Part shown: piece after piece, positions 17,258 through 18,877 of the stretch
Layout: every line of letters begins with the position of its first letter
How positions within the stretch are numbered: the first letter of the stretch is position 1
Source of the DNA: a virus
Taxonomy: Duplodnaviria > Heunggongvirae > Uroviricota > Caudoviricetes
Length of the DNA: 20,988 bases
Virus record (IMG/VR): IMGVR_UViG_2778261588_000006
Coordinates: 1 to 20,988 of that record
Reading direction: 5' to 3' (one strand)
Position numbers and translations under genes: made by a program
Notes under the pieces: model-generated
Databases searched by the model: none
What the model saw: only the letters and a program-made list of their open reading frames with translations
Told to the model about the DNA's origin: nothing

Positions 17258-17442
17258 ACGCCACAATTCAAACGATACCAGAGCTTCTTATCCAGACACG
17301 AGGCAATCAGACCGAAGTGGCGAGGATGCTTTCCTGCGCAAGAGGAACAGTGCTCAAGTACAACCGAGACAGCAAAGGCGAGCGTCATGTAATAGTTAAC
17401 GGCGTCCTGATGGTCAAACAAGGAAAGAGGGGAAGACGATGA
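17254..17442 (+). CDS. ninH: NinH-like protein
   Basis: IPELLIQTRGNQTEVARMLSCARGTVLKY...VNGVLMV parallels lambda NinH. Confidence 0.7.
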   Translation: MNATIQTIPELLIQTRGNQTEVARMLSCARGTVLKYNRDSKGERHVIVNGVLMVKQGKRGRR

Positions 17443-17957
17443 GCATAAGAGAACTAAACCTCACCAAAGAGCAGCACGAGTGGCTGAATGGCTGGCTTGA
17501 ACTGTGGGGCGCATGGGTTTATTCAGGTCGACTGGAAAAGCGCATGAGCAGCGTAATAGCGAAGTTCATGGAGAGCGTAGAGCCGGGAAGAGTTATGACA
17601 AGGCCAATGTGTAATGATGATGATGGAATGTTGATTTCTCAGGTCGTCGATTCCGTCATGTGCATTGACAAGAAAGCCTTTGGCATCCTCCTCAGCTACT
17701 ACGCTCATGGTTCATCTAAGCGAGCAATTGCATCCTACTATCACGCGACTGCAAAGCCACGCAAGATGTGTGGACGTGGTGGCGAGGGATGGAGAAAACC
17801 TTCACTGGCAACCTGTAGAAACGAAATTGACGACATCCTGAAAGCGTCATTATTTGTTTTATACCAGCCAATGCAAAATGCTTTCAAAATGCGTAAACGT
17901 GTTGAGAAAGTTAAGCATGTTGCTGTTAAAAGCCTTGACATGCAATTAGCCATTTAG
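17439..17957 (+). CDS. Q: Late-gene antiterminator Q (QuuD / non-lambda Q family)
   Basis: Positioned between ninH and the lysis cassette; WGAW and RPMCNDDD motifs resemble QuuD-type Q as recalled; unlike lambda Q. Confidence 0.6.
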   Translation: MSIRELNLTKEQHEWLNGWLELWGAWVYSGRLEKRMSSVIAKFMESVEPGRVMTRPMCNDDDGMLISQVVDSVMCIDKKAFGILLSYYAHGSSKRAIASYYHATAKPRKMCGRGGEGWRKPSLATCRNEIDDILKASLFVLYQPMQNAFKMRKRVEKVKHVAVKSLDMQLAI

Positions 17958-17964
17958 CCATAAT
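17935..17964 (+). promoter_or_regulatory. Candidate late promoter PR' (-35 TTGACA 17935-17940; -10 CATAAT 17959-17964, 18-bp spacer)
   Basis: Consensus -35 and near-consensus -10 straddling the Q stop codon, where lambdoid late promoters lie. Confidence 0.35.
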
Positions 17965-17973
17965 TAGAAGGTA

Positions 17974-18017
17974 AGCTGCCGTTAGTGACTCTTAAGTTGC
18001 AACGGTGGCTTTTTTTG
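17974..18017 (+). terminator. Candidate tR'-like intrinsic terminator (stem 17974-17983 / 18001-18010, then T7 run)
   Basis: About 10-bp stem (two G-U pairs) with large loop followed by TTTTTTTGTTTG; about 35 nt downstream of the candidate PR' start. Confidence 0.35.
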
Positions 18018-18040
18018 TTTGCACAACAGGTAAGAGCATT

Positions 18041-18090
18041 GCGCGCCTGACGAGTCCATGAGGGACGAAACGCATTAGCGTCGCGCGGAG
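18041..18090 (+). ncRNA. Hammerhead self-cleaving ribozyme motif (type I topology)
   Basis: Core CUGACGA 18047-18053; stem II GUCC 18054-57 / GGAC 18063-66 (loop AUGAG, G10.1-C11.1 pair); GAA 18067-69; stem III ACGC 18070-73 / GCGU 18078-81 (loop AUUA, A15.1-U16.1 pair); cleavage triplet GUC ending at C 18082; stem I CGCGC 18042-46 / GCGCG 18083-87. Every invariant core position is satisfied. Confidence 0.6.
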
Positions 18091-18532
18091 TATCCCCAGC
18101 CGGGGAATAACTGGATACCAGGGGAGACAACCCTAAGCGCATTTACGAGTGTGTTTAGGGCGTGGGTCGGCAATGACTCCCTGTGCAGCCGACATCTGGC
18201 CCGGCAACATACAGTGCTCTTTCCGTTGTGCTGAATTAAGCGAATACCGGAAGCAGAACCGGATCACCAAATGCGTACAGGCGTCATCGCCGCCCAGCAA
18301 CAGCACAACCCAAACTGAGCCGTAGCCACTGGCTATCCTGAATTCATCAGTGATAGTTATGCTGCGGCCTTCTACACATGACCTTCGTGAAAGCGGGTGG
18401 CAAGAAGTTGCGCTAACAACCTCCTGCCGTTTTGCCCGTGCATATCGGTCACGAACAAATCTGATTACTAAACACAGTAGCCTGGATTTGTTCTATCAGT
18501 AATCGACCTTATTCCTAATTAAATAGAGCAAA

Positions 18533-18553: not shown

Positions 18554-18877
18554 ATGAAGATGCCAGAAAAACATGACCTGTTGGCCGCCATTCTCGCGGC
18601 AAAGGAACAAGGCATCGGGGCAATCCTTGCGTTTGCAATGGCGTACCTTCGCGGCAGATATAATGGCGGTGCGTTTACAAAAACAGTAATCGACGCAACG
18701 ATGTGCGCCATTATCGCCTGGTTCATTCGTGACCTTCTCGACTTCGCCGGACTAAGTAGCAATCTCGCTTATATAACGAGCGTGTTCATCGGCTACATCG
18801 GCACTGACTCGATTGGTTCGCTTATCAAACGCTTCGCTGCTAAAAAAGCCGGAGTAGAAGATGGTGGAAATCAATAA
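18554..18877 (+). CDS. S: Holin S (class I, dual-start S107/S105)
   Basis: [39 protein letters not shown]... is essentially lambda S as recalled; Met1-Lys2-Met3 dual start. Confidence 0.95.

Follow-up and report, generated by a model that had tools for sequence, protein, structure and literature searches.

A probable phage 21-type late antitermination cassette upstream of a hammerhead-like motif in a lambdoid prophage

The closest described relative of the locus reported here is the late region of phage 21, whose primary description is reportedly that of Guo, Kainz and Roberts from 1991. We took the features of that region from the annotation of GenBank record OL657228 and from later papers. 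The record annotates, in order, a -35 hexamer, a Q-binding element (QBE; ATTGAGCA, AATGAGCA), a -10 hexamer, the transcription start, a pause element dependent on sigma (SDPE), a terminator, tRNA-Asn and tRNA-Thr. After initiation in phage 21, the initial transcribed region offers a -10-like element that sigma region 2 binds again, and polymerase pauses 18 bp downstream of the start (PMC9191641). The phage 21 Q protein (structures 6P18, 6P19 and 6JNX) belongs to PF06530, the Q21 family (PMC9388147). Two protomers occupy the direct-repeat subsites of the QBE, whose C:G pairs lie at -21 and -13; the upstream one forms a ring in the RNA-exit channel, and passage of the short nascent RNA through this ring keeps the hairpin from forming (PMC6606751; bioRxiv 10.1101/651190), and a 21PR'-21tR' template gives Q-dependent readthrough in vitro (PMC6606751).

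Two other systems are useful for comparison. Lambda shares the overall arrangement of the present locus, with a constitutive promoter, a QBE between the -35 and -10 hexamers, a sigma-dependent pause close to the promoter and an intrinsic terminator, followed by the lysis genes. However, the lambda Q protein is a member of the unrelated family PF03589, binds as a monomer to a non-repeat site and needs NusA (PMC9388147). StxS is an sRNA of Shiga-toxin phages, whose Q is a different one. It originates in a PR'-tR' interval of 258 nt, RNase E trims it to 74 nt, and its seed is defined (PMC7547250).

We analyzed 20,988 nt of viral DNA (IMG/VR record IMGVR_UViG_2778261588_000006, positions 1 to 20,988; hereafter the window). 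The initial annotation had proposed that a PR'/tR'-like pair for a non-lambda Q lies at the end of the Q gene. This proposal is borne out by the assignment of Q to PF06530 and by element-by-element alignment with the annotated phage 21 region. The components found are those of a Q21-type cassette, namely a PF06530 Q gene upstream, a promoter overlapping its 3' end, tandem repeats, a pause element and a terminator (Table 1). We consider it very probable that the locus is the late-gene antitermination cassette of a lambdoid E. coli prophage of the phage 21 family (Q21, PF06530), in the allelic form carried by Sf6, HK75 and L.

Table 1. Elements of the late control region and its surroundings, with positions in the window.
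Feature	Position	Strand	Basis
Q antiterminator gene, 172 aa, Q21 family	17439..17957	+	ORF list, PF06530
PR' -35 hexamer TTGACA	17935..17940	+	Consensus scan; aligned with annotated phage 21 -35
Putative upstream Q-binding subsite QBEu AATTAGCC	17944..17951	+	Aligns with phage 21 QBEu ATTGAGCA
Putative downstream Q-binding subsite QBEd ATTTAGCC	17952..17959	+	In register with phage 21 AATGAGCA
PR' -10 hexamer CATAAT	17959..17964	+	Consensus scan; aligned with phage 21 -10 AACACT
Predicted late transcription start G	17971	+	7 nt past -10; aligns with phage 21 +1 A
Sigma-dependent pause element (SDPE) TAAGCTG	17972..17978	+	Identical to SDPE annotated in phage 21
tR' intrinsic terminator, hairpin 17973-18011 into T7 18010-18016	17973..18016	+	Fold, phage 21 identity
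Predicted sigma-dependent pause, +18	17988	+	Transferred from phage 21; +2 to +46 identical
Mosaic junction, 22-mer TGCACAACAGGTAAGAGCATTG	18020..18041	+	Exact-word match to lambda 44785
Type I hammerhead-like motif, first element past readthrough	18042..18088	+	Rfam RF00163 sub-threshold match
Lambda-type holin S, first late gene served	18554..18877	+	Pfam PF05106

Promoter, pause element and terminator

A consensus -35 and a near-consensus -10 had been described as straddling the Q stop codon, and this is what we found. The two hexamers agree with the sigma-70 consensus at 11 of 12 positions across an 18-nt spacer, and the TAG of the Q ORF (17955-57) falls between them. This was the sole match of at least 11/12 on both strands of the 21-kb window, and the consensus scan found no second promoter-like site on the + strand between Q and the holin gene. 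Taken alone, the hexamer match is only suggestive, because dinucleotide shuffles of the window averaged 0.37 such matches each, with at least one in 30% of shuffles. The pair is raised above chance because positions 17972-18016 are identical to the pause element and tR' of phage 21.

These figures bear on a reading in which the hexamers are a chance match and the hairpin is just the terminator of the early rightward (nin-Q) operon and plays no part in controlling the late genes. About 30% of shuffled windows hold a match as good as this one, and the hairpin does lie directly after the last early gene, as such a reading would have it. However, the Q-holin interval has no other + strand promoter-like site, and the element has the same sequence as its phage 21 counterpart, where measurements have shown readthrough to depend on Q. 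In addition, the -35, repeats, -10, pause element and terminator are conserved together in 46 loci from at least 10 genera, and the repeats covary with Q residues (see below). We regard this reading as very unlikely, and what follows treats the hexamers as the late promoter.

From the T after the start to the end of the T-run, the window is identical to phage 21 (TAAGCTGCCGTTAGTGACTCTTAAGTTGCAACGGTGGCTTTTTTT). The -35 is also the same in both, and both have two tandem 8-bp repeats between -35 and -10. They differ in the -10 itself (AACACT in phage 21, CATAAT in the window) and in the spacer, which is 17 nt in phage 21 and 18 nt in the window, where one more base separates the -35 from the first repeat. 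The Q ORF of the window is 10 codons longer than that of phage 21 and reaches into the promoter; its final 10 codons share sequence with the -35 and with the Q-binding repeats. Alignment to the phage 21 annotation suggests a late start at approximately G17971; as a cross-check on the phage 21 start numbering, we used the positions published for the C:G pairs of the QBE, -21 and -13 (PMC6606751).

The SDPE (TAAGCTGCCGTTAGTGAC in both the window and phage 21) contains the -10-like hexamer TAAGCT at 17972-77, corresponding to +2 to +7, with the element itself spanning +2 to +7 or +8. By homology with phage 21, polymerase would be expected to pause at about 17988 (+18). Comparison with both Q21 and Q82 had been suggested, and in its pause region the window matches phage 21 exactly and does not match phage 82. 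Both the SDPE and the pause site lie inside the 5' arm of the tR' hairpin. The leader can be this short, and the pause region can double as the terminator 5' arm, because loading of a Q21-type protein needs only upstream DNA and less than 20 nt of RNA.

In the RNA fold of 17971-18020, the tR' hairpin has 17 bp with a bulge and a free energy of -20.2 kcal/mol (z = -4.3 to -4.4 relative to shuffles). The T7 tract at 18010-18016 is one of just two runs of at least seven T on the + strand of the window. An automatic terminator scan, whose model is one uninterrupted stem with a 3-8 nt loop, made no call at tR', presumably because the bulged hairpin does not fit this simple stem-loop model.

Measured from the predicted start at G17971 to the last T of the run, the leader comes to about 46-47 nt, so the hairpin and T7 run do sit close behind the start, as the initial annotation had it. 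Its figure of about 190 nt for the lambda PR'-tR' distance was likewise accurate; we measured approximately 193 nt from the lambda PR' start to the T-run. The description of the leader as very compact is right with regard to length (~47 nt) but does not set this locus apart. Since the phage 21 leader is equally ~47 nt, compactness is a family trait. The idea that both the Q-utilisation and pause sequences are compressed into the leader held for the pause element and pause site, but not for the Q-binding element, which sits between the -35 and -10.

Among 20 sequence variants of the leader, a count that includes loci from our IMG/VR scan, the 5' arm was unchanged in 19, and the remaining one (locus L097) had a single G-to-A change. 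All other changes were in the 3' arm, where about 7 of 11 at paired positions keep the pairing. The SE1 variant is predicted to fold more stably, at -26 kcal/mol.

A short RNA ending at tR' could also be the main product of the locus, acting in trans as a prophage sRNA in the manner of StxS, with antitermination as an additional function. StxS is likewise a short RNA from a late promoter that is constitutively active and constitutively terminated in the lysogen. In lysogens, PR' promoters fire constitutively; in Stx phages, the PR'-tR' RNA is an sRNA that binds Hfq, and short RNAs have been reported from the late promoters of phages 21, phi80, 82 and P22 (PMC7547250). A strong hairpin with a U-tract at the RNA end, as predicted here, is also the usual Hfq-binding module. 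However, the window RNA differs from StxS in being 47 nt long and nearly all stem in the predicted fold. About 7 nt are left unpaired, namely two at the 5' end, a single bulged A and the four of the loop, and because the RNA is almost fully paired, it has no obvious seed. The pause function also limits how far its 5' half can vary, and this half hardly changes, showing a single substitution among 20 variants. An sRNA as the main product is therefore improbable in our view, and we continue to read the short RNA as the terminated late leader.

Q protein and covariation with its putative binding repeats

The Q protein of the window matches Pfam PF06530 with an E-value of 1.3e-25 (90.1 bits, cutoff 26) and phage 21 Q in PDB entries 6JNX/6P18 with 1.5e-90. 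Overall identity to phage 21 Q is 85%. Residues 1-102 are nearly identical, and the DNA-contacting C-terminal part is divergent. Two of the eight contact residues listed in PMC6606751 are changed relative to Q21, with H95 and R128 of phage 21 replaced by R95 and N128. The repeats differ as well, being ATTGAGCA/AATGAGCA in phage 21 and AATTAGCC/ATTTAGCC in the window. We infer that the DNA specificity of the window Q is changed from that of phage 21. The downstream repeat of the window includes the Q stop codon, and its final base is the first base of the -10.

The nearest published comparison is phage L, whose gp23 is 98% identical to the Q of the window. In the L genome paper, AATTATCC/ATTTAGCC was proposed as the QBE and called "quite likely", and three of six contact residues of gp23 were reported to differ from phage 21 (PMC8022706). 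We also considered P22 gp23 as a Q21-type protein and rejected it, because the P22 gp23 is lambda-type and the phage L gp23 is 21-type (PMC8022706).

Two other cassette types were considered and rejected for the window. A lambda-type cassette has a PF03589 Q, a 6S RNA and a leader of ~190 nt; the window gave no PF03589 match, and its leader is ~47 nt. A Q82-type cassette has a PF06323 Q and a pause at +25; the window gave no PF06323 match, and its pause region is that of phage 21, not phage 82.

We surveyed 44 loci from one-genome-per-species bacterial assemblies, plus phage records. Of the 46 loci with a readable Q ORF, 34 have a TAnGyTGy pause element whose offset from the -35, from a pair of 8-bp direct repeats and from the -10 is always the same. 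The remaining 12 mostly show this order in the printed sequence, with a looser pause element, TAnRnT. The surveyed loci span at least 10 genera, including Escherichia, Salmonella, Pantoea, Yersinia, Providencia, Morganella and Edwardsiella. Extraction of the QBE by its repeats took in 12 loci with TAAGAT, TAAGGT or TAGAGT as the pause element; an Arsenophonus locus (L126) was out of register and degenerate even after this step. An IMG/VR scan with Q alignment returned near-identical Q21 copies only and was uninformative on the diversity of Q/QBE classes. IMG/VR loci make up most of the phage 21 class in the covariation set, and the species-representative scan supplied the diversity.

Covariation was counted over 30 distinct combinations of Q residues and repeats. 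Asn at residue 128 accompanied T at repeat position 4 in 8/8 combinations and Arg accompanied G in 20/21, the exception being the degenerate Arsenophonus locus; the single combination with Lys had T. At repeat position 8, C was found with Arg at residue 95 in 11 of 12 combinations, and A with His, Tyr, Leu or Ile in 17 of 18. Arg at residue 124 accompanies a GGAC or GACC core (positions 5-7) instead of GAGC. Positions 4 and 8 assort independently, as TGAGCA, TTAGCC, TGAGCC and TTAGCA all occur.

This correlation supports AATTAGCC/ATTTAGCC as the putative QBE of the window allele, and it is from covariation that we draw support for binding of these repeats by the window Q. On a residue-to-base correlation across the family, our literature search turned up only the observation, made for phage L, that its QBE and three contact residues are different. 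We lean, if only slightly, towards the view that the Q21 family is divided into several specificity classes that are mutually orthogonal and follow a simple readable code, the Q/PR' pair of the window being one of them. If so, co-resident prophages could carry near-identical Q, pause and terminator modules without cross-activating one another's late genes. As a natural specificity variant of Q21, with identical pause and terminator sequences and co-changed residues and repeats, the window allele offers a clean system for tests of DNA reading and could serve in the building of orthogonal antitermination switches.

Distribution of the allele and proposed function

A megablast of 17880-18110 against phage genomes returned 98-100% identity in HK75 (HM173637), Sf6 (AF547987), CUS-3 (CP000711), BTP1 (LT714109), L-like phages (L, MW013502) and many more. 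The Q proteins of HK75, Sf6 and L are 98-99% identical to that of the window. In HK75, the same DNA is annotated with promoter pR' and terminator Tr'. The Sf6 record annotates P R' as "nearly identical to phage 21 late promoter", with a qut site, and t R' as "similar to phage 21 late terminator", and the QBE and start site of phage L were predicted in its genome paper (PMC8022706). The upstream repeat is AATTATCC in HK75 and L but AATTAGCC in the window and Sf6. Past the terminator, Sf6, L and BTP1 have tRNA genes, and HK75 and CUS-3 have a lambda-like leader. The PR'-tR' module is present in 747 of 5426 complete E. coli genomes.

The promoter-terminator pair is thus a known cassette, annotated in GenBank on identical DNA and structurally solved for the phage 21 allele. 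As first written, the PR'/tR' finding matters little, being the correct re-identification of a textbook regulatory cassette.

Our analysis supplies the anatomy, homology, conservation and covariation of the cassette; pausing, Q binding, the nozzle and readthrough come from the phage 21 literature. By homology, we expect the start, pausing, termination efficiency and Q dependence of the window allele to resemble those of phage 21. In this scheme, sigma-70 RNA polymerase would initiate constitutively at PR' (~G17971), sigma region 2 would re-bind TAAGCT (+2 to +7), and polymerase would pause at around +18. Without Q, the result would be an RNA of ~47 nt, almost wholly the tR' hairpin, ending at the T7 tract. 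Once Q has accumulated, two protomers would occupy the tandem 8-bp repeats AATTAGCC and ATTTAGCC between the -35 and -10. In the paused polymerase, the RNA-exit channel would receive the ring ("nozzle") of the upstream protomer, with the short nascent RNA threading through that ring. Formation of the tR' hairpin would then be blocked, and transcription would continue past tR' and across the hammerhead cassette and lambda-type leader to reach S, R and Rz as well as the structural genes.

The changes in Q and in the repeats could also be signs of decay, with the altered Q blind to the altered repeats and the late genes silent or driven in some other way. H95R and R128N affect residues reported as base contacts in Q21, and three substitutions weaken the second hairpin downstream, that of the lambda-type leader. 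However, the viable, plaque-forming phages Sf6, HK75, L, BTP1 and CUS-3 carry the same Q/repeat pair, and a module at least 95% identical occurs in approximately 426 complete E. coli genome records. Across independent lineages, moreover, changes in the protein go with changes in the DNA, which is the signature of a maintained interaction. We give a decayed remnant almost no weight and retain the reading of a working Q21-family cassette.

Mosaic junction and hammerhead-like motif downstream

The same 22-mer, TGCACAACAGGTAAGAGCATTG, begins 5 nt after the T-run of lambda tR' and 3 nt after the T-run in the window. Because it follows both T-runs, the window terminator occupies the position of lambda tR', and we treat this point, placed by exact-word matching, as a mosaic junction. 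The 22-mer is common to HK75 and CUS-3. An annotated "boundary sequence" in CUS-3 (locus 1279-1342, equivalent to 17958-18020 of the window) ends one base into it. Upstream of S, the window and lambda agree at 351 of 360 nt of the late leader (97.5%), but 37 nt of the lambda leader are swapped for a 170-nt insert (18042-18211) in the window. The region downstream of the terminator also differs from that of phage 21, which has tRNA-Asn and tRNA-Thr where the window has the lambda-type leader and the hammerhead cassette. ARAGORN found no tRNA genes in the window; in phage 21, Sf6 and L, tRNA-Asn and tRNA-Thr follow tR'.

The insert consists of a hammerhead-like motif followed by a domain of ~120 nt. 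Rfam at gathering thresholds gave no match anywhere in the window, and a permissive scan of 711 nt matched RF00163 at 24.7 bits (E = 0.0015), below the threshold of 34. The motif has a complete catalytic core, with predicted cleavage after C18082, and its stems II and III covary in relatives. The initial annotation had Q-mediated readthrough delivering polymerase straight into the hammerhead; geometrically this is so, with 18042 lying 25 nt past the T-run, for a motif that is sub-threshold in Rfam. The ~120-nt domain had no Rfam match, either in the window or in divergent copies.

It is this hammerhead-plus-structured-RNA cassette, not the promoter-terminator pair, that is the unusual feature of the interval. 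The PR'-tR' module here feeds a rare, unannotated hammerhead cassette, whereas in relatives it is followed by tRNA genes or, as in HK75 and CUS-3, by a plain leader without the cassette.

The hammerhead cassette was found in just 15 of 5426 complete E. coli genomes, annotated in none of them, and in 19 IMG/VR contigs. Unrelated phages carry it too: in a T7-like phage of Enterobacter it sits between the genes for capsid and tail tube, and in Pectobacterium and Dickeya phages just upstream of a tRNA-Met. RNAalifold, applied to 12 distinct copies of the cassette, returned a fold of 43 pairs, and at 14 of these both bases change in a compensatory way. A tRNA begins within a few nt of the 3' end in two copies, and in tRNA-adjoining copies, hammerhead cleavage together with RNase P would be predicted to free an RNA of ~125 nt.

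A candidate processed RNA in the late leader

Between tR' and the holin gene S, 37 nt of lambda late leader have given way to a 170-nt cassette. This cassette comprises a type I hammerhead joined to a structured domain of approximately 120 nt, and that domain yielded no match in Rfam. When 12 distinct copies were compared, compensatory changes were found in 14 of the 43 predicted pairs, including those of a long-range helix in which GCCGGG pairs with CCCGGC and of a pseudoknot-like GGGGAG/CUCCCU pairing that was spotted by eye. Unrelated phages also have the cassette, namely a T7-like Enterobacter phage, Pectobacterium and Dickeya phages and 19 IMG/VR contigs; just 15 of the 5426 complete E. 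coli genomes carry it, and no occurrence is annotated. We consider it a candidate for a new processed phage RNA.

In two divergent copies of the cassette (locus L137, 2501–2746; locus L144, 1354–1726), a tRNA gene begins no more than a few nucleotides from the cassette 3' end. The adjoining gene in phage Pappous is tRNA-Met; an IMG/VR contig has two tRNAs there. In phages 21, Sf6 and L, the slot that is filled by the cassette in the window holds tRNA-Asn and tRNA-Thr or tRNA-Leu. Taken together, these tRNA positions suggest excision of the cassette as an RNA, with the hammerhead making the 5' cut and RNase P the 3' cut.

A long inverted repeat belonging to the lambda late leader (TGCACAACAGGTAAGAGCATTG ... 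CAGTGCTCTTTCCGTTGTGCTG) carries the cassette at its tip. Since the T7-like phage SDFMU_EhYP has the inverted-repeat flanks along with the cassette, the closing helix seems to move as part of the unit. Further along, the second lambda late leader hairpin (GGCAGGAGGTC...CCTCCTGCC followed by TTTT) has three substitutions in its 5' arm, and its predicted stability is weaker in the window (−19.2 kcal/mol) than in lambda (−28.2 kcal/mol).

Features of the Q gene and the late leader (window positions)
Feature	Position	Strand	Remark
-10-like TAGGAT	17732–17737	minus	within Q
CII-type site TTGC-N6-TTGC	17751–17764	minus	within Q
Q tail VKSLDMQLAI	17928–17957		stop codon within downstream repeat
Inverted repeat, arms	18020–18041 with 18212–18233		cassette at tip
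Cassette	18042–18211		170 nt
Type I hammerhead	18042–18088		predicted cleavage 3' of C18082
Second leader hairpin	18399–18433

Predicted promoter elements overlapping Q

The window Q is 10 residues longer than that of phage 21, and its coding sequence therefore crosses the -35 hexamer and the upstream repeat, whereas the phage 21 Q gene stops 6 nt upstream of the -35. Within Q, the CII-type site and TAGGAT lie at offsets that exactly match the antisense promoter paQ and CII binding site annotated in the phage 21 record (OL657228). From this match in position, the anti-Q promoter appears to have been kept although the C-terminal Q coding sequence has diverged.

An exception at residue 95 and unexpected genome labels

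A single clear exception was found to the pairing of Q residue 95 with repeat position 8. At loci L096 (Shimwellia pseudoproteus) and L084, Q is 98% identical to Q21 and has Arg95, yet the repeats are of the phage 21 type with a final A. Two genome contigs (L094 and L098) carry near-identical enterobacterial Q21-type loci in assemblies labelled as Segatella copri and Cellvibrionaceae MAGs, where these loci are probably the result of binning contamination.
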